Source: an uncultured Candidatus Rokubacteria bacterium
GTDB taxonomy: Bacteria > Methylomirabilota > Methylomirabilia > Rokubacteriales > CSP1-6
Direction of reading: 5' to 3'
NCBI GenBank assembly: GCA_963758635.1
Contig: CAVWWD010000004.1
Span: forward strand, 1-64,000
Length of the DNA stretch: 64,000 nt
This document shows positions 1,654 through 19,480 of this stretch, in pieces. The notes beneath the pieces are model-generated. The model was not told where the DNA came from and ran no database searches. It saw only the letters and a program-made list of their open reading frames with translations. Position 1 is the stretch's first letter. Each line of letters starts with the position of its first letter. Made by a program: the position numbers and the translations under genes.

Positions 1654-1793
1654 CCTGGCGTGACGAAGCGGGCACGCTCGGGTTGGTCCCGGCGCGCCCG
1701 AACGCGCTGGAGGACGCCCCCCACCGGGGGTTCGCCGTCCCCTTGTCGGTCCCGAGCGTGCCGTGCTCCGGTCCAGCGTCGGGCGTGGCGGCC

Positions 1794-2171
1794 ATGAGCA
1801 AACGCAAGAAGGCGAGGCAGGCCCTGGCCGGGGCGGCGGCGGCCGCGGGCGCTGACAACGGACGGGAGCCGGGGCGCTTTTCGGCGCGGCGGAAGACGGA
1901 GACGATCCTGCGCCTGCTGCGGGGCGAGGCGCTCGACGGCGTGGCGCGCGAGCTCGGGGTGACGGCGGCGACGCTGGCGCAGTGGCGGGAGCAGTTCCTG
2001 GCGGGCGGGCAGAGCGCGCTGAAGAGCCGGCCGGCCGACGAGCGGGACGACGAGATCCAGCGGCTGCGGGCCAAGGTCGGCGAGATCACGATGAACAACG
2101 AGCTGCTCCTGGACCGGTGCCATCGGCTGGAGGGCGGCCTCCCTTTGGCGTGGCGGAGGCGGAGCGAATGA
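1794..2171 (+). CDS. IS3 transposase OrfA (HTH)
   Basis: RFSARRK...LLRGE...VARELGV....L.QWR HTH followed by a coiled coil; ATGA overlap with orfB. Confidence 0.85.
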   Translation: MSKRKKARQALAGAAAAAGADNGREPGRFSARRKTETILRLLRGEALDGVARELGVTAATLAQWREQFLAGGQSALKSRPADERDDEIQRLRAKVGEITMNNELLLDRCHRLEGGLPLAWRRRSE

Positions 2172-3056
2172 GCCAGACCCGCTCCCCCTCCACGCAGCAG
2201 GTCTACGGTCTGGCGCGGGTGTGCCGAGTGTGGGAGGTGGCGCGCTCGACGGTGTACGCCACGAAGGGCCGGGCGGCGGGGCCGGCGACGGCCCCGGGGC
2301 GGCGCGGCCCGAAGCCGCAGTGGAGCGACGAGACGTTGCTGAGCGAGATCCGGGCCGTGCTGGCGGCGGCGGTCTTCCTCGGCGAGGGGCATCGCAAGGT
2401 CTGGGCGCGGCTGCGGTGGCAGGGGGTGCGGACGTCGAAGGCGCGGGTGCTGCGGCTGATGCGGGAGGCGCACCTGCTGGCGCCCACGCGTGTGGGCCAC
2501 GCCCATGGGCCGAAGGCCCACGACGGGACGATCACCACGGAGCAGCCGGATCAGATGTGGGGGATGGATGCGACGAGTTGTCTGACCCGCGAGGGGACGG
2601 CCACGGTCTTCGTGGTGGTGGATCACTGCGCGGCCGAATGCATCGGGCTGCACGCGGCCAAGCCCGGGACCCGGTTCGAGGCGGTGGAGCCGCTGCGGCA
2701 AGGGGATCCACGCCCTGTTCGGCGGCTACGAGGCCGGCATCGCGGGCGGGCTGCAGGCGCGGCACGATCACGGCAGCCAGTACATGAGCGACTACTTCCA
2801 AGATGAGCTGAAGTTCCTGGGCATCGTGTCCAGCCCGGCGTTCGTGCGCGAGCCGGAAGGCAACGGCGTGGCGGAGCGGTTCATCCGCACGCTCAAGGAG
2901 CAGCTGCTCTGGGTCCGGAGCTTCGACACCGTGGAGGAGTTGCGCCACGCGCTCCTCGAGTTCAAGGCGCGGTACAACCGGGCGTGGCTCTGCGAACGCC
3001 ACGGGCATCAGACGCCGGCGCAGGTGCGCGCCCAGCTCCTGCCGAGGGCCGCGTGA
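2168..3056 (+). CDS. IS3 transposase OrfB (DDE/rve core), frameshift near 2701
   Basis: GHRKVWARL, WGMD, RHDHGSQY, NGVAERFIRTLKE and YN...H...TP motifs joined across two frames. Confidence 0.85.
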
Positions 3057-8101: not shown

Positions 8102-11100
8102 TCAGAACTCCTGGGCGTTCAGCGACTCGACGAAGAAGTCGATCGCGTAGGAGCCATTGCTGCTGACCGCGGTGTTCCGGCCGATGCCCCACGCCGGCCG
8201 CGAACCGCGGCCGAAGTCCAGCGACACGGTGCCCAGGCTGTCGTCGGAGAAGGTGTCCTCGTCCCTCCCGCTCACCCGGATCTTCAGGGCGCCGCCAGCC
8301 GGGATCTCGACCTCGCGCGCCCACGACGACCCGCGGAGCGGGACGACGTTGCCGGTGTCCACGTCGACGTCGACGAAGCGGCCGACGGACGCGCCGTTGA
8401 CCTTCATGTCCAGCGTCCACTCGCCCGACCCGAAGGTGTCCTGGTCGTCCCGGGCGGTGACCGACTGGAAGGTGACGCGGAGGCGCACGGGCAGGTCGGC
8501 GACCTCGCGGGCGGCCGGCGCGGGGTCGGCGACGAGCCGGAGGTGGATCCGGAAGTCCTGGGCCTCGGCGGCGGTGAGGTTCTCCTGGGGATTGGCGCGG
8601 AGCTTGGCCTCTACCGCCGCCGGCCGCGTGGACTGCTCGATGCCGTGGTAGCCGGCGGGGTAGTCCACCTGGCTCGGGGAGCCGCAGAGATGCGCGTACT
8701 GCGGCCCGAGCGTGGCGAGGATGGCGGCCACGCTGTTCCAGAGTTGCCGGCACCGGGCGGGATTGGGGTTGGTCGGCCGGATGTCGGCGGCGATCCCCGC
8801 CTGGTGCTCGGCGAGGGGCGCCGCCTCGTTGATCACGCAGAGGGCGGGGGCGCCGTGCGCCTGGCACACGTGGCTGAGCGTCACGTCGATGCCCGCGTTG
8901 AAGTGCCGGCGGATGCGCTCCATCGCCTCGAGGAGCGCGTAGCTGAAGCGCGTCTCGGTGGGCGGCGTCGCGCCGGGGGCGTGGTTGCCGGGCTGGCCGC
9001 ACGCGATGTCGCGGCGGGTGAAGGTGTACGTGTCCGCGGCCATCGACACCTCGCTGGGGACGAGGCGCTCGTTGTCGGCCGCCGTCGCCGCGAACTGCGC
9101 GGGCGCGGGGGCATTCCGCCAGTCCACGAAGCGCGTGAGGAAACCGGACTCGTCGATCTCCACGTTCACGTCGTGGTTCTCCGACTCCCGGCTCTCCCAG
9201 TTCTCGCCGGCCACGAGCTGGTCGATGTGGTGCATGAACGTGATCGGATGGTAGTGCCAGAACATTCCGGCGGCGTCGCCGAGCTCGTTGGCCAGGCGCG
9301 GCAGCGCGGCCACCGCCTCCGCCACCCACGAGAACCGCCGGAAGTGCGGCCAGAGCACGCGCCGGCGGTCGGGGTGGGGGACGAGCGCCTCGATCTGCGA
9401 CTCCTGGGTCAAGGCCCACTCGCTCTTGTGAAAGGCCTTCACGGTCCGCAGGTCGGGCGCGGCGCGCAGGATGTCGGCGACATCCAGACCGTCGCCGCCC
9501 CGGTCGCGCAGGAACCGGTCCAGGGTGCGGACGTTGCAGATGACGTTCTGGTCGTCGTCGACCACGCGGCGCTGCGGATCGTTCCACGGCGCGCCGGTGA
9601 GCTCGCGGTTCCGATGGCTCAGGACCTCGAAGTGGAGCATGCGGCGGCCGCGGAAGTGCCCGCACGTCCCGAGGATGTCTCCCACCGCCACCATGACGTT
9701 CGGGGCGAAGACGCGTCCCTTGTCGCCGTCCATCCCGACGTCGACGCCCGGGTTCGCGGCGCGCCACTGGTTGAACCAGGGCGGGTTCTCGTCGTGCTCC
9801 GCGGCGGGGTCGCGCACGGGCAGGAGGTGCATGTAGAGCGAGAACACGAACGTCGGGTCGGCGTCGTAGTCGATGCGATCGCCCAGGCCCTGTGGGTCGC
9901 GCTGCACCGTGCGGTAGACGGCGTGGCGCAGCAGCACGAATCGCTGGCTGCCGAACTTCGGGTGCACGTCCGTCTCGCGATTGCTCGCCAGCCGCGCGGC
10001 AACGATCGTGCCCGACGCGGCCGCGTAGACGCAGGGGTTCGCGTCGGGAACCGACAGGTGCACGCCGCCGTGCCAGACGCGGTTCAGTCCCACGGGGAAC
10101 ATCCCGCCCTGCATGGTCTCGGTCAGCCGGTAGTACGCCTCGACCTGGTCCAGGTCGTAGCGGCTGCGCGTGTCGAGAAGCGCGTCCAGGTCCGCGTTCC
10201 GGTAGGGCACTCCTTCGATGCGACCCGCCGCCGTGAACCGGAAGTGACTGTTGCGGCCGGGCTGACCGGCCACGTGGGGCGGCGTCCGGAAGGGGCCCGA
10301 GTAGTACGGCCGGATCTGCCCCTCCGGCTCCACGGGCAGCCACCACTCGTCGGTGATCCCGCGGAACAGCCGGTTCCGGTTCACGATGCCCGGGCACACC
10401 TTGTCGGGATGGCAATTCCGGTGGGCGAGGATGCCGCGGAAGTGCATCACGCGGCTCCGGGACACGCGGCGCTCGATCGCCGTCCCGTCGTCGAGGTAGT
10501 GCCGAAAGATCTCCTCCCGGCTCGCCCCGAGGAACTTGCGCGGGATGCGGTGGCGGATGCACAGGTGGCGCAGCAGGAGGATGAGCGCCATGTACTGCTC
10601 GTCCTGGACCGACTGGTAGTCCTGGTGCCCTTCGATGGCCACCGGGCAGGTGGATGAGGCGGTTCACGTCGGCGGGACGCGCGTGGTTGCACACGAGGTT
10701 CGGCGCCGCCGCCGTGCCGATGTTGAGCGGCGCCGGGCAGGTCGCGAGCGGCACGTGCCGTCCGGCGACGCTGGGCTCGCTCGCCGCGGTCACGCCGAAC
10801 CAGGACCAGGCGGCGTTCGAGATCTCGATCCCGATCGACGAGTTGTTGAGCAGGCCGCCGTGGAACGAGCGCACCTCGTCATCGAGCACCCGCACCACGT
10901 CGACGATGCGGTCGTCGAGCTGGTCCGCCCGCCGGCCCCGCCCGGACGGGCGGCCTGGCCCACGGCCGTGCGCTCGACGACGTAGTGCGCGGAGGCCGCG
11001 GAGCTCGCGGGGTTGTTCCACCAGTCGATCACCTGCTCGGCGGTGCCGTTGCCCGCGGTGCCGTGGATGTACGATCTGGCTCTTCTGGTGCCGGCTCGGG

Positions 11101-11207
11101 TTGAAGTTGTCGGCGTTCAGGACGTGGTCGGTGGTGACGAGGTGGAACGCCCACGACTGGCCGAACACCCAGAGGCGCCGTCGGTTCGCGGCTGGCGCCT
11201 GCTTCAC
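8102..11207 (-). CDS. Multidomain peptidoglycan hydrolase: amidase_2 + M23-like + M15A-like + C2-like domain (~1035 aa, three frameshifts near 11070, 10950, 10645)
   Basis: Amidase: IV(I)HGTAG, SAHYVV, FHGG..N.SIGIE, ILAHRNCHPDKVCPG. M23-like: FPVGLNRVWHGGVHL, VYAAASGTIV, SLYMHL, VAVGDILG, LHFEV. M15A-like: FTRRDIAC, LLEAMERIRRHF, HQAGIAADI. C-terminal DEDTFSDDSLG. GTGA overlap with the upstream gene. Confidence 0.75.
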
Positions 11208-11797
11208 GGCGCGCGCCTCCGCGTGGCCTTGGCCACGAGCCCCACCGCCATGCCCCCCAGCGCGTTGCTCGCCGACGTGAACTCCAGCCCGTCGTCGCGG
11301 GCCGCGATGACCAGCCGTTCCTTCACTGTCTGTCCGTTCTGACGGCGCTCGCCGAGCAGCACGAGGGCACCGGCGCGGTCGATCCGGCCGGCAAACCGGA
11401 TCGCGCCGGCGGCGACGCTGTCGATCCACACCGCGGAATAGCGCTGCTCGTGCGGCTCCCAGCTGACGGTGAGGCGTGCCTCGATCGGCGCCGGGCCGGA
11501 TCCATGCTGGAGGACGGCCTCGAGGTGGGAGCCGCCGAGGATCTGCCGGACCGTCATGTGGAACGCCGACGCGGACCCGGAGCGGTGCGGCGTGGCGCGC
11601 ACCTCCGCGGTGCCCGTCCAGTCTCCGACCAGCGGGTCGAGCCGGGCCATCGCCGCGGCCGGGGTCTCCCGCGCCGCTGCCCGGGGCGCCTCCGGCTCCA
11701 CGGCATCGCCGGCCGGCACGCCCACGGCGGCGGCAACCACGACGGCGGCGACCCGGATGGCGGTCAGCGCGGCTGCGGTACGGACACCGGATGACAT
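11204..11797 (-). CDS. Exported DUF1579-like beta-barrel protein
   Basis: Hydrophobic signal-like N-terminus; LDPLVGDWTG and YSAVWIDS motifs. Confidence 0.6.
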   Translation of the reverse strand: MSSGVRTAAALTAIRVAAVVVAAAVGVPAGDAVEPEAPRAAARETPAAAMARLDPLVGDWTGTAEVRATPHRSGSASAFHMTVRQILGGSHLEAVLQHGSGPAPIEARLTVSWEPHEQRYSAVWIDSVAAGAIRFAGRIDRAGALVLLGERRQNGQTVKERLVIAARDDGLEFTSASNALGGMAVGLVAKATRRRAP

Positions 11798-11951: not shown

Positions 11952-12587
11952 TCAGCAGCCGTGCTTGGCGACGAGTCGCTCACGCGTGGCGGCGTCCGGC
12001 TCGCCGCTCTGGGACAGGCTGTTGGTTTCCTGGAAGGCGAGCAGCGCGCTCTTCGAGATCGGGCCGATCCGGCCGTCGATCGCGCCGCAGTAGTAGCCGA
12101 TGTTGTGCAGGCGGGCCTGGGCGCCCGTCGCCTCGCGCACGGGGTCGAGGCAGCCGATCTCGAGGTCGAGCCGCAGGTCGTCCTTTCCGAGGAAGAGGAC
12201 GCCGGCGGTGGCCTGGCCCGGGATCGGCTCGTCGAGCTTCCCGTCGCCGTCGGTCTTCCCCTGCTTCACGGTGCCTTCGACCTCGAGACGGTACTTCTCG
12301 TTCTTGACCGGCTTGCCCGCGGCGAGGATGCGGAGCCGGAGCCGGATCGGGCGTCCGAGCAGTACGAACCGGTGCCGCTGGTCCGTGGGTCGCGGCTCCT
12401 CGCGCGAGTCGCGCTCGGGCACGTGCAGGATGTCGCCGGGGAAGAGGAGGTTCGGGGTACGCTCGCGCAGCCGGAGCGGCTGGTTCTCCGCGAGGCTCCA
12501 GATGCGCCGCCACGAGACGCCGTAGCGCTCGGCGAGGCTCCCGAGGCACTCGCCCTGCTGCACGACGTGACGGATCAGGGCCGCCAT
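11952..12587 (-). CDS. LysM plus C-terminal peptidoglycan-binding (PG_binding_1) protein
   Basis: HVVQQGECLGSLAERYG...PNLLFPGDILHVP (LysM); QARLHNIGY..GAIDGRIGP.S.SALLAFQ....L...G.PD..T (PGBD). Confidence 0.85.
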   Translation of the reverse strand: MAALIRHVVQQGECLGSLAERYGVSWRRIWSLAENQPLRLRERTPNLLFPGDILHVPERDSREEPRPTDQRHRFVLLGRPIRLRLRILAAGKPVKNEKYRLEVEGTVKQGKTDGDGKLDEPIPGQATAGVLFLGKDDLRLDLEIGCLDPVREATGAQARLHNIGYYCGAIDGRIGPISKSALLAFQETNSLSQSGEPDAATRERLVAKHGC

Positions 12588-12735
12588 GACGGGGCCAGAT
12601 TGAAACACCAGGTCCGAGGGTGTCAAGGCGACGGGCCCCGAGCGCCGCGCGTCTTGCGTCTCGCACTCTCCGCCGCGCGAGATGCGCCTGCCAGCGGCCA
12701 GCTGGCGAGATCTGCCCGACCGCCAGTGTCCAGAA

Positions 12736-13326
12736 ATGGATACACTGGCGGTCGTGACGCCGGGACGGTTTCGCTTCGGCAGGATCTCGGTCGCAGCCTT
12801 CGTGGTGGCGCTGGCGCTGCTGTGCGTCGATGGAGCGAGCGCCCAGGACCTCCGAGGCAAGGTCGTCCGGGTGGCTGACGGCGATACCATCACCGTCTTG
12901 CTGGATCGCCATCCCATGCCTGTCCGACTGAACGGGATCGATGCGCCTGAGCAGGGCCAAGCCTTCGGAAGGAAGGCGCGAGAGTTCACTGCGAAGCTGG
13001 CCTTGCACAACGAGGTGACGATCCGTGGGTTTGGCCAAGATCGGTTTCGTCGGACCCTGGGAGAGGTCTATTTGCCCGACGGTAGGAGCCTGAATCACGA
13101 ACTGGTCCGTGCAGGCTATGCGTGGTGGTTCCGGCGCTACTCGAAGGATGGCATCCTGGCCGAGCTGGAATCTCAGGCGCGGGCGAAGCGGGTCGGACTA
13201 TGGGCGGATTCGCACCCGGTGCCGCCATGGGAGTGGAGGCAGCTCCATCAGGCCCGGGGCAGAGCGGCTTCTGCGGGCGGGCTCGAGCCAAGCCGGGGCA
13301 CCCTCGTCGCCGTGGGAGCTCTCTAG
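12736..13326 (+). CDS. Thermonuclease (SNase) family protein with signal peptide
   Basis: VVRVADGDTI, VRLNGIDAPE, DRFRRTLGEV, LNHELVRAGYAW, GLWAD..PVPPWEWR. Confidence 0.9.
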   Translation: MDTLAVVTPGRFRFGRISVAAFVVALALLCVDGASAQDLRGKVVRVADGDTITVLLDRHPMPVRLNGIDAPEQGQAFGRKAREFTAKLALHNEVTIRGFGQDRFRRTLGEVYLPDGRSLNHELVRAGYAWWFRRYSKDGILAELESQARAKRVGLWADSHPVPPWEWRQLHQARGRAASAGGLEPSRGTLVAVGAL

Positions 13327-13796: not shown

Positions 13797-14100
13797 TCAC
13801 GCCGTGAGGTCCGTCACCGCGCGCGCCGCTTCGGCGGTGCGTCTGGCCGCTAGCAGCGCGAGGACGAGTAGACGCCGGCCGCGCGGCGTGGCGTGCAGCC
13901 GAACCGCAGCGGCCGCCAGCTCGCACGCCTCCTGGTCCCGGCGGGCGGCGAGGGCGGCGCGCGCCGCCCGCCGCAGCTCCCAGGCGCGGGCGGCCACGCG
14001 CATGACCGGCCCCAGGTCCGTTCCACAGCGTGTACACGCCGTCGCGTCCCGCCAGGGCGCACGGCAGGTTGGGCAGCGCGGGGTGCTCGGTTAAAAGTGG

Positions 14101-14104
<4 letters not shown>
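13797..14104 (-). CDS. Small zinc-ribbon plus helical protein (frameshift in the T run near the start)
   Basis: ATGA overlap with the Hsp70 stop; RCPTCRAPW...CTRCGTDL (two CxxC pairs), then Ala-rich helices. Confidence 0.65.
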
Positions 14105-15982
<1,878 letters not shown>

Positions 15983-15990
<8 letters not shown>

Positions 15991-16749
15991 CGGAGTCTCC
16001 TGCGGCCGGCGGTGGTCCGCCGGCCGCCTTGACCTCGGCGAAACGGAGCACGCGACCATCGACGGTGTAGCCCGCGCGGAACACCTCGAGCACCGTCCCC
16101 GGGGGCGACGCGGCGCGTCCGCGACCTCGACGGCGCGCATCACCGGGGGTCGAAGGGCTTGCCTTGGGCGGGGATCTCGTGCACGTCGAGCCGCCGCAGG
16201 GTGTCGTCGAGCCGGTCGAGCGCCAGGGCGTTGCCGTCGACGAGCGCCTGCAGCACGGGGCGCTGGGCGAGGCGGGCGCGGAGCCGCGAAGGTTGTCGAG
16301 CCGGCCCGGGCCTCCGCCAGCCCGCGCGCGAGGCGATCGCGCGCCTCCAGCAGCTCGGCCACCAGCTCCAGCCGGGCCTCGCGCCGGGCCTCGGTGAGCC
16401 TCTTCGCGACGGTGTCCTGGCTGCGGGCGTGCTCCAGGCAGGCGGTTCAGCGCGTCGCCCAGCTCGGCGTGCAGGCGGTTGGTGGCCCGACCCTGGAGCT
16501 GCGTCTCGCGGGTCAGCGCGGCGAGCTGGGCGAGCACGGAGAAGAGGTCGGGGGCGCGGTCGGTGGCCGACGCCGCCTCGGCGGCGAGTCCCGCGGCGGC
16601 GGCTCGGGCTCGGCCAGCTCGTCGAGCCACGCCTCGATCGATGCCAGGAGCGCGCGGCGGCGCTCCGGATCGCGCAGCGCCTCGCCCGGCTCGGCCGCCG
16701 GCCGCACGGCCTCCGCGTCCGTCGACGGCCTGTCCATCGGCTCGCTCAC
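15983..16749 (-). CDS. grpE: GrpE-like nucleotide exchange factor (frameshifted)
   Basis: Helical N-terminus; C-terminal FDP..MRAVEV and PPGTVLEVFRAGYTVDGRVLRFAEVK. Confidence 0.75.
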
Positions 16750-17036
16750 GGCCGGTCACCGCGCAGAACGTTGAGCCAGGGCCCGGGGCCGACGAACCGG
16801 CGCTCGTCGGGCACCTCGTCGACGAGCGACTCCAGATGCTCGAGCGGGGCCGGGCCGAACAGCCGCAGCGCCAGGCGGCGCTCCTCGTCGCGCACGGCGT
16901 CGTAGGCCTCGCGGACGCGGCGGAATCCCTCCGGATCACGATCGGGGGGCGCGCGCCGGACCGCCGCCAGATACGCGGCGCGCACCGCCTCGTCGTCGGC
17001 CCTCGCGTCGATCCCGAGTACCTCGAAGGGGTTCAC
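16746..17036 (-). CDS. Small J-domain protein with non-canonical PPD motif
   Basis: NPFEVLGI...ADDEAVRAAY...VRRAPPDRDPEGFRRVREAYDAVRDEERR; GTGA overlaps at both ends. Confidence 0.8.
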   Translation of the reverse strand: MNPFEVLGIDARADDEAVRAAYLAAVRRAPPDRDPEGFRRVREAYDAVRDEERRLALRLFGPAPLEHLESLVDEVPDERRFVGPGPWLNVLRGDRP

Positions 17037-19480
17037 AGGCGTTCTTCTCCAGGGAAGGCGAGGAAGTCGTCGAACAGGTCTCGCTGCTTCCGCCGCGGGG
17101 CCCGCCGCCGCTTGCCGCGCGGTGCCTTGTCGGCGGCGAACACCGGGACCTCTCGGTGCGCACGCTCGGCGCGGAGGCACCGGGCAATCTCCTCCGGCGT
17201 GGTGGCTCCGGCGTCGGCGGCGAGCCTGCGCGGGACCCACGGAGCCGGCTCGGGCGAGAGCGCGAGGGCATCGAGCGCGGACGAGGCCTCGCGGACGGCG
17301 TCCATGTCGCGGGCGCGGCCGGCCACCTCGCGCGCGGCGCGCAGGCAGGGCCACGCGCGGTCGCGATCGCGACGCGACGCGGCGGCCGCGAGTGCGTGGC
17401 CCCGCGCGAGGAGGAAGCGGTGGAGCAACGGCCCGCCGACGGCGAGCCCCTGGCCGGAGGCGGCGTAGGTCAATGCCGGGCGGCCCATCGCGAGCCCGCC
17501 GAGGCACAGCGAGTGAAGATCGGCCGCCGATGTGCCGTCGAGATCGTGCTCCACCCGGGCCAGCAGGTCGGGGGGCGCCACGAGGGGGCGATCCAGCGCG
17601 CGGAACAGGTCGCACGCGCGAGCCAGGGCCTGGGCCGTCTCGGCCGGCGAGGCCTGTGTCCGGCGCGTCGGGGGGCTCGAGGCCGAACGTCTCGCCCACC
17701 GATGACAGGATCAGCCACAGCATGGTCGGGTTGCCGAGGCGCGAGGCCAGCTCCTCGTGCAGCCGCACGGCGCCCGGCCCATCGCCGTTCCTGCGCATCG
17801 CCACCGACCGGACCGCGCCGAGGTAGGCGAACGTGTCGCCAGCGGCCGTGACGGGCTCCTTGTCCAGGCGGTCCAAGTCCGCCAGGGAGAGGGCGAAGCG
17901 GCCTTCCTTGATCCTCCGCTCCGCGCCGGCGAGGAGCAGGCGAAAGCGACTCTGCCGCACGTCGGGATGCACCCGGTTGATCGCCTCGGCCTCGTCGAGC
18001 CGCTCGATCGCCTTTCGGTGGGCGCCGCGCCGCTCGGCGGCGCGCACCAGGTACAGCAACGGCTCCGGGTCGCGCGGATGCGCCTGGCGCCACCCCTCGG
18101 CCTCGGTCTCGGCCCGCCGCGGATCGCTCGCCTCCCAGTGGGCGACGAGCGCGCGGAACACGCGCGGATCGGGATCGGCCTGCCGCGCGCGGGCCAGGAG
18201 ACGGCCGCGGTCGGCGCACTCGGGAAGCTCGCCGTCCCGGATCAGGACGTCGCGCTCCTCCTCGGACTGAACGTCGAACGCATCGAGCGCCTCGTCGCGA
18301 TCGGCGGGGAACAGCTCGGCCATGTGCAGCAGCACATGCGACGCCTCGCGCCCGGTCAGCGGTGTGGCCCCGGCGCGGTTGGCGCCGGCGAGGTAGCCGT
18401 CCCAGAAGATGAGCGCCTGGTCCCACGCCCCGATGCGCTCGAGCGCCAGCGCGATCAGCCGCGCGGTGTCCCGCTGCCACTGGATGTCCCGCCGGTCCCG
18501 CTGCAAGGCCGCGACCAGGGGCCGCGGACTCAGGTTCCGATGCGCCACTCTTTCAGAACCGTGGCCGCGAAGATCTGCTTGACGGACGCGGACTCGCAAA
18601 GGGGCAAGATCCGCTCGACGGCGGCCACGGCTGTCGACGCATCCTTCTCTTCGAGCGCGTGGACCAGCTGCTCCAGGTGGTTGCGGAGCGCCGGCCGTCC
18701 GCCGCCGACGGCCTTGGCGAGGGCCCCGGCGGCGGGCGATCGCCGGTCGAGCGGCGCCGGCGCGCCCACCAGGTGGTGCAGGACGGGCACGAGTCGGGCC
18801 GGCGCCGAGTCGGGCGGGATCGCGTCGAGATTGGCGCGCACCGCGCCGTCCGCGCGCCGGTAGTAGGCGTCGAGGGCACGGATCAGGAGCTTCCAGGGCG
18901 CCAGCGGCGAATGACGGGAGATCCCGTCGAGGGCGGCGAGCGCGCCCGGGGCCAGCGGACCGCTCGTCACCGCGTCGAACAGCCCGCTCACCGCCTTCGC
19001 GGCGCACCGCAAGAGATCGCCGGCCGGCAGGGCCTCCTCGTCCGCCAGCTGGCGCGGGTCTCTCAGCTCCCGCGCCAGGATCGCCTCGATCTCGTGCCGT
19101 CGCAGTGGGGTGGCCGAGGCCAGCTCTACCAGCAGCGACCGTAGATCTCCGCTGGCGATCGCCTTGCGCTGCTTCACGAGCGGCACGATGCGTTGGCGGT
19201 GGGCCGGGAACCGCTCTCCGACCAGCATGGCCAGCGCGTCGGCTTCGTCGTACAGGCCCGTCGAGAGCATCGCGCCGATCCGGGCCTCGTAGGCGGCGAG
19301 GATGAGCGCCTCCGCGTCGGCGCTCCGCGTCTCCTTGAAGAGCTGCTTGGCGAGATCGAGCGCCTCGCGCGCCTTGCCGGCCGCGATCAACGACGACTCG
19401 ATCCGGACCCGTGACGCCTCGGGGTCCGTCGAGGGCTGCACCGGGCGGCGATCGGCGGCGCGCTTGTCCCGCATGCTCAT
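17033..19480 (-). CDS. Large alpha-helical/TPR-like protein (~810 aa, frameshifts near 18530 and 17655)
   Basis: Continuous helical coding across three frames (LIAAGKAREALDLAK, SPLAPWKLLIRAL, DPEPLLYL..AAERRGA..KA); first gene of the coupled operon. Confidence 0.65.

Follow-up and report, generated by a model that had tools for sequence, protein, structure and literature searches.

A predicted WHIX-type effector of type VI secretion with amidase and M15-like domains in an uncultured Rokubacteria genome

A gene on the reverse strand of an uncultured Candidatus Rokubacteria contig, running from a GTG start at position 11207 to a stop at 8102, is predicted to encode a protein of about 1034 amino acids. 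All positions refer to the 64,000-nucleotide stretch of DNA analysed here (the window). With a probability of roughly 0.8, the product is one four-domain protein, consisting of an Amidase_2 domain, a WHIX domain, an M15-like domain and an Asp-rich tail, and serves as an amidase-driven subclass II WHIX cargo effector of a type VI secretion system (T6SS), by which it would be injected into rival bacteria. The initial annotation had counted three peptidoglycan-cutting domains, a count that is not supported, as the M23 part is without two of five active-site residues and a conserved arginine of the M15 domain is present in none of 67 homologues; there is probably one working cutter rather than three. 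The effector is a variant of the known WHIX effectors, not a new kind of system. It widens the range of these effectors to uncultured phyla of soil and sediment, with a family of 67 or more full-length proteins, and a complete T6SS is indicated in a Rokubacteria genome. Testable roles are offered for the DUF1579 and LysM/PG-binding families, and a link between WHIX and M23 gives a handle on WHIX loading and on possible action after delivery.

Homologues and their hosts

A first homologue search gave 54 matches among 7997 candidates scored; when the central region served as the query, the count was 132 among 8000. The comparisons below use a set of 67 proteins of 850-1150 amino acids in which a WHGGxH-like and a DEWW-like motif were required, so that the first two WHIX histidines are conserved in this set by construction. 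The amidase and central regions are matched in all 67 homologues and the M15-like region in 64. Intact homologues do exist, with lengths of 934-1111 amino acids. Named hosts include Acidobacteriota, Fibrobacterota, Bdellovibrionota and one gammaproteobacterium. An S12 protein of the window's host falls into one 90% cluster with a protein from Rokubacteria, while a 16S search in plasmids told nothing about lineage. Among 251 genomes the gene occurs in this one and was found in none of the 250 others of the class. A metagenome scan with the single protein gave no match, while a scan with an alignment gave 30 loci; the 38 effector loci in all collapse to 33 distinct ones. In a quick tree, the protein belongs to a clade of seven rows with a support of 100.

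The central region matches the WHIX domain

WHIX is a domain of two parts with WHxxxH as its defining motif (Fridman et al. 2025, PMC12135965). As described there, the domain alone suffices for secretion by the T6SS, is non-toxic in the periplasm of E. coli and binds the C-terminal tail of VgrG4, and its authors leave room for a role after delivery (PMC12135965). Judged by its motifs, the region at positions 9233-10108 (reverse strand), previously read as M23, is this published T6SS delivery domain in a compact form. The earlier suggestion that the altered M23 part may be a carrier rather than an enzyme was therefore borne out, given that WHIX is sufficient for secretion and non-toxic by itself (PMC12135965). 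The motifs of the window protein are WHGGVH (10075), YMH (His at 9829), LHFE (His at 9634), HKSEW and WHYHP (9259). Compared by eye, the two WHIX regions share nine motif blocks, in the same order, with the first 575 residues of the founder protein, WP_005373349.1. In region 1 (founder residues 31-126), WHGGVH, G.IVAARL, FVLLRH and LYMHL correspond to W41/H42/H46, G67, H99 and H119, and these motifs are invariant columns in the broad alignment. In region 2 (founder residues 271-476), V..GD.LG, HFE, H.SEW, FSW and WHYHP correspond, again by eye, to G274/G278, H300/E302, H387/W391, W454 and W471/P475. The gap between the two regions is about 45 amino acids in the window protein, compared with 144 in the founder. 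Furthermore, a Burkholderia protein with WHIX and GH19 domains was matched at E 1.5e-4 (5e-13 in a pairwise comparison) and aligned over both regions, as part of an alignment with proteobacterial proteins of WHIX type. Scans against NCBIfam and Pfam gave no match to a WHIX model, and nothing significant came from PDB sequences searched with profiles of WHIX and M15. The published family was drawn from RefSeq genomes with a PSSM criterion of E<=1e-6 and 70% coverage (PMC12135965).

The WHIX domain is likely a degenerate M23 domain. Of 20 distant relatives, 19 have a match to the Pfam M23 model (PF01551) in their WHIX region at E<0.1, nine of them above the cut-off, while the window protein alone falls below it. 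The active site of M23/LytM peptidases consists of an HxxxD motif, an HxH motif and one more histidine (PMC8269130, PMC5053510). Three of these five key residues are kept in WHIX. The aspartate is replaced by histidine (HGGVH), and the first histidine of HxH is lost from all 67 homologues, with methionine or another residue in its place, whereas the second, in HFE, is found in 66 of 67 and the histidine of YMH in 67 of 67. In this respect, one detail had been misassigned earlier: the intact YMH holds the extra M23 histidine, while the HxH that is altered corresponds to M-L-H in MLHFE. The domain may still bind a metal through three histidines. In addition, the WHIX fold differs from M23/LytM in being interrupted and extended, and it resembles degenerate LytM domains that serve as binding modules. 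The main text of the WHIX paper mentions M23 three times, each time as an N-terminal toxin domain (PMC12135965), and a literature search combining WHIX and M23 found no paper beyond this one and its preprint.

Two further kinds of WHIX-type gene were seen. A second one (L024:3617-7564, 1316 amino acids) lies two genes downstream of an amidase-WHIX-M15 gene. A second large group with Amidase_2 and WHIX but without M15 (P0105-P0123) includes several members with EF-hand-like matches inside WHIX and one member named from Kofleriaceae.

Relation to known T6SS effectors

The effector most closely parallels the subclass II 'double-blade' WHIX effectors of the type of Awe1 from Aeromonas jandaei (PMC12135965). 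In both, the motifs of the two WHIX regions keep their order, WHIX is flanked on each side by peptidoglycan-enzyme domains, the hosts are T6SS-positive, an exported protein adjoins and relatives lie behind vgrG or PAAR genes. Subclass II is defined by an N-terminal extension of more than 99 amino acids with a peptidoglycan enzyme, and here the extension is about 365 amino acids long and carries Amidase_2. The window effector differs from the Awe1 type in its compact WHIX domain, swappable fourth domain, LysM partner and single candidate immunity gene instead of two, and in that its homologues are hosted by Rokubacteria, Acidobacteriota, Fibrobacterota and Bdellovibrionota. In Table 2 of the WHIX paper, an N-terminal Amidase_2 is recorded only twice (one AmpD-like, one PGRP), and the C-termini of Table 1 name neither M15 nor a C2-like tail, with 145 'others' not itemised (PMC12135965). 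The amidase-WHIX-M15-tail architecture is thus absent from these two tables. Another multidomain cargo effector with an amidase is Tae17, a bifunctional T6SS hydrolase of Acinetobacter baumannii (PMC11796386). As described there, Tae17 is loaded on VgrG's C-terminus, and its second activity is that of a lytic transglycosylase, with no WHIX or M15 domain named in the abstract (PMC11796386).

The amidase as the likely warhead

The N-terminal domain (positions 10334-11207, reverse strand) is of the Amidase_2 (AmpD/T7-lysozyme) type, as the initial annotation had recognised. The Pfam model PF01510 lies above its cut-off in all eight intact homologues scanned, though the fragments of the window protein alone fall below it, and AmpDh3 is the best PDB sequence match, at E 0.0025. 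An NCBIfam scan of the effector gave only a weak AmpD match and a chance match to GlmU. The zinc ligands are assigned to His (11065), His (10423) and Cys (10396), and the catalytic residue to the Glu of SIGIE (10826). In the order His, Glu, His and Cys, these residues are kept in 65, 67, 67 and 67 of the 67 homologues. The same His/His/Cys ligand pattern with a glutamate is found in PlyN74 (PMC5977269). This conservation suggests that the amidase is likely an active warhead.

The M15-like domain and the number of working cutters

The third domain (positions 8531-9031, reverse strand) resembles Peptidase_M15_3. The window protein alone has no Pfam M15 match, and fused M15 domains from three proteins fall below the PF08291 cut-off (E 0.008-0.23). 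A profile built from eight copies of the domain and run against 1.84 billion proteins gave 70 matches; a repetitive protein of 1722 amino acids among them was set aside. Of the 27 weakest matches, 26 are Peptidase_M15_3 proteins (PF08291) above the cut-off, and the His-x6-Asp...His zinc triad is aligned (His 8806, Asp 8785 and His 8545 in the window), which upholds the M15 homology claimed earlier. The domain departs from its free-standing relatives at an arginine in the SGYRC stretch that 15 of 16 free M15_3 proteins have and none of the 67 fused domains has; in the window, Val (8869) takes its place. It also carries an extra conserved Cys/Cys/His/Cys set. The arginine appears to be the equivalent of one in VanX and ChiX that aids substrate binding (PMC5778951), and activity of the M15-like domain as a peptidase is accordingly doubtful on present sequence comparisons.

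The same T6SS delivery with two or three working cutters, in which M15 is active with a changed specificity and WHIX perhaps cuts after delivery, is possible but rather unlikely. The triad of the M15-like domain is kept in 64-65 of the 67 homologues, with gaps in the rest, and as it is fully kept, the reading of one working cutter may be wrong. A glutamate two residues past the third histidine is likewise found in 44 of 67, and WHIX retains four histidines, including those of YMH and HFE. Against this stand the missing arginine, an arginine in the window at the position of that glutamate, the loss of the first HxH histidine throughout the family, and the finding that the WHIX domain of Awe1 is non-toxic alone (PMC12135965). 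An effector with the amidase as its one main warhead remains the preferred reading.

The Asp-rich tail

The protein ends in an Asp-rich beta domain (positions 8105-8500, reverse strand), possibly C2-like, that is swappable within the family. Tails like that of the window are found in 20 of the 67 homologues, 34 have a different short tail and 13 have neither, several of the last stopping directly after the M15 domain. The spacing of the Asp clusters is, we presume, that of C2 calcium loops. ESM features place the tail at 0.89 to a cluster with 30% PF00168, at rank 22 and below unnamed clusters. A tail profile run against PDB found the C2 protein 3W56 at E 0.49, over its second loop and below two unrelated matches, while the Pfam C2 model (PF00168) matched none of six tails. 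A search with the tail only recovered just the same family (two matches among 668 candidates), and a literature search that paired C2 domains with T6SS wall effectors found nothing on the topic. A calcium-binding, membrane-targeting C2 domain is thus a lead only. An apparent association between the C2-like tail and loss of the downstream exported-protein gene that the other clade carries was discarded, as it traces to a single clade in the quick tree and is not independent evidence.

Type VI secretion in the host and its relatives

The T6SS core set is complete in the host genome, with TssA to TssG and TssJ to TssM (11 of 11) and one VgrG on contig C6, away from the effector contig. The WHIX paper required at least nine of 11 in a host. 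The cluster lies at C6:123000-151300. Its VgrG ends in a small domain that we take to be transthyretin-like, and one PAAR gene is found on contig C3 of the same genome. In the kin set of 61 genomes, TssF was detected in only three, counting this one. T6SS genes are also present in all eight other host genomes examined: among the eight genome loci, three (L001, L003 and L005) adjoin VgrG and other T6SS genes, and TssC and TssF were found in all five remaining genomes. Over the 33 distinct loci, T6SS core or spike genes lie at 11, and at nine of the 15 loci of at least 9 kb, with some relatives directly behind vgrG or PAAR genes. All of these adjacent loci belong to the other clade; in the seven-row clade of the window, no T6SS structural gene was found in the DNA near any locus. 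Together, the WHIX motifs, the full T6SS set of the host and the T6SS-positive relatives support the link to type VI secretion that the initial annotation had drawn from motifs. A query with the T4-gp19 tube of eCIS had no match in the genome, but nor did the control query match anywhere, so that this is no evidence against eCIS delivery. A literature search for type VI secretion in Rokubacteria found nothing on the topic. At one vgrG locus of a relative, a gene with a protein-arginine deiminase domain lies directly behind PAAR (L003:4751-7207) and is a possible T6SS effector.

Candidate immunity and loading genes

The gene directly upstream of the effector (positions 11204-11797, reverse strand) encodes a DUF1579 protein (PF07617) with a signal-peptide-like N-terminus, as judged by eye, and its stop overlaps the effector start codon. 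It is a candidate immunity protein that may protect its owner. It is a single copy in the genome and occurs at only two of the 33 other loci (L016 and L039), where the order LysM gene, DUF1579 gene, effector recurs. A search of the literature on DUF1579 found no paper. No immunity gene lies downstream of the effector in the window, and L017 has no upstream candidate. In the other clade, a conserved exported protein is encoded directly downstream at 14 of 33 loci (e.g., L003:13070-13918) and is a candidate new immunity family. Five members scanned had no Pfam match; this genome lacks a match to the family, and the upstream proteins of L007 and L034 share no homology with it. At the loci inspected, a single candidate immunity gene is seen in place of a pair on either side, which we infer to fit one main warhead. 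Exported immunity proteins on both sides are typical of subclass II but lie outside the definition of the subclass given in the paper (PMC12135965).

Further upstream (positions 11952-12587, reverse strand), a gene encodes a LysM domain, a small beta domain and a PG_binding_1 domain, with a protein end in HGC; it is a candidate loading adaptor or co-effector. The small beta domain is presumably transthyretin-like. The gene is found at 16 of 33 loci. The genome holds six matches (C7:283988, C9:356407, C9:118676, C2:142328, C8:961216 and the window gene), most ending in HGC or HGS and each beside a large candidate cargo gene. The large neighbours are three OmpA-like genes (by eye), one gene of 704 amino acids with a lipoprotein, one WD40-like gene and the effector, and such pairs are possible orphan T6SS cargo cassettes. 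Since the matches adjoin unrelated large genes, the LysM gene is not specific to WHIX. Among 60 relatives it was found only in the TssF-positive G017 (seven matches), and it is missing from another TssF-positive genome, G006. LysM proteins can bridge VgrG and an effector, and in Ketobacter and Burkholderia, as here, a LysM gene lies beside an effector and an immunity gene (PMC10673891). In that system, LysM is stand-alone, with PG_binding_1 also enriched at vgrG loci (PMC10673891). Compared by description, the case here differs in that both domains lie in one protein of about 210 amino acids with a conserved HGC end, and that its six matches are located away from vgrG. In L005, what looked like a VgrG-LysM fusion was rejected as a wrong-frame read-through.

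A proposed route of action

In the proposed mechanism, the WHIX groove, a degenerate M23 site perhaps with a three-His metal, would dock on a C-terminal tail carried by the spike, in the way that Awe1 docks on VgrG4. The upstream LysM/PG-binding protein would help in loading, which is likely because the effector gene is far from the single vgrG. The amidase would then cut the MurNAc-L-Ala bond in the prey periplasm, while the M15-like domain would more likely bind stem peptides or cut weakly than serve as a second complete blade. For the tail, binding to a surface or to calcium is possible, and the exported DUF1579 protein likely shields the owner.

A more elaborate version of this scheme is improbable as a whole. 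In it, WHIX would be an M23 peptidase put to a new use, its three-His metal site holding the C-terminal tail of the carrier like a substrate. In these uncultured phyla, a dispersed LysM/PG-binding adaptor would be the carrier, docking through its terminal HGC and bringing six orphan cargoes to one VgrG spike. The cargo encoded in the window would be a wall toxin of three modules, an amidase, an M15 enzyme that lacks the Arg and has a new specificity, and a C2 anchor that binds calcium, and DUF1579 would block it as a new family of amidase immunity.

It is more improbable still that the protein acts on the wall of its owner (e.g., opening peptidoglycan for T6SS assembly) or is a released or predatory lysin. 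The distance of the gene from the T6SS cluster, the LysM and PG_binding_1 domains of the neighbours and homologues in a Bdellovibrionales genome would suit such a role. However, no signal peptide is evident by eye, as the initial annotation had noted, WHIX has been shown to act as a secretion domain, both the tail and the flanking exported genes are polymorphic, and relatives lie directly behind vgrG or PAAR genes.

Three breaks in the reading frame

The assembly interrupts the gene by single-base breaks near 11070, 10927 and 10644, all within the amidase part. One frame of 846 codons (10642-8105) covers the last three domains together with the amidase end, with the remaining amidase coding sequence scattered over three segments. 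With an X at each of the three breaks, a read-through of 1034 amino acids without stops is obtained, with 62% identity to the intact homologue P0004 over 1026 columns, and the single four-domain protein of about 1035 amino acids that had been proposed after frameshift repair was confirmed in this form. Its listed motifs are likewise all present and in order, the sole exception being the first, which is IHGT at a break (IVLH.T in homologues). Contigs from four public runs were compared with the gene; they come from relatives about 97-98.5% alike and not from the source sample. A short-read contig of one such relative (X1/8) aligns over 10102-11100 (998 nt, 15 substitutions and three gaps) with a one-base difference at each of the three breaks. 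Over the four runs, the 10644 indel was seen in all, that at 11068/11070 in two (X1 and X2) and that at 10927 is listed in X1 only. Similar breaks occur in many neighbouring genes, including vgrG and DnaK-like genes. As the contig of the relative is without all three breaks and neighbouring genes are similarly broken, the breaks are likely assembly errors in a real gene, as we would expect of an unpolished long-read assembly. Genuine breaks in a pseudogene of this strain are very improbable, for although the compared contigs belong to relatives and no run contained half of the words, one relative is free of all three indels, the neighbours are broken in the same manner and 1034 codons run without an in-frame stop. 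No promoter or terminator consensus was found. An RNA run (X8) gave contigs over parts of the gene, which are no proof of transcription.

Other genes in the window include an extra DnaK/GrpE/DnaJ-like cluster (14091-19480, reverse strand) and an IS3-like transposase (1683-3056), both frameshifted and recognised by eye, and a divergent gene of the thermonuclease family with a signal-like N-terminus (12682-13326, forward strand).
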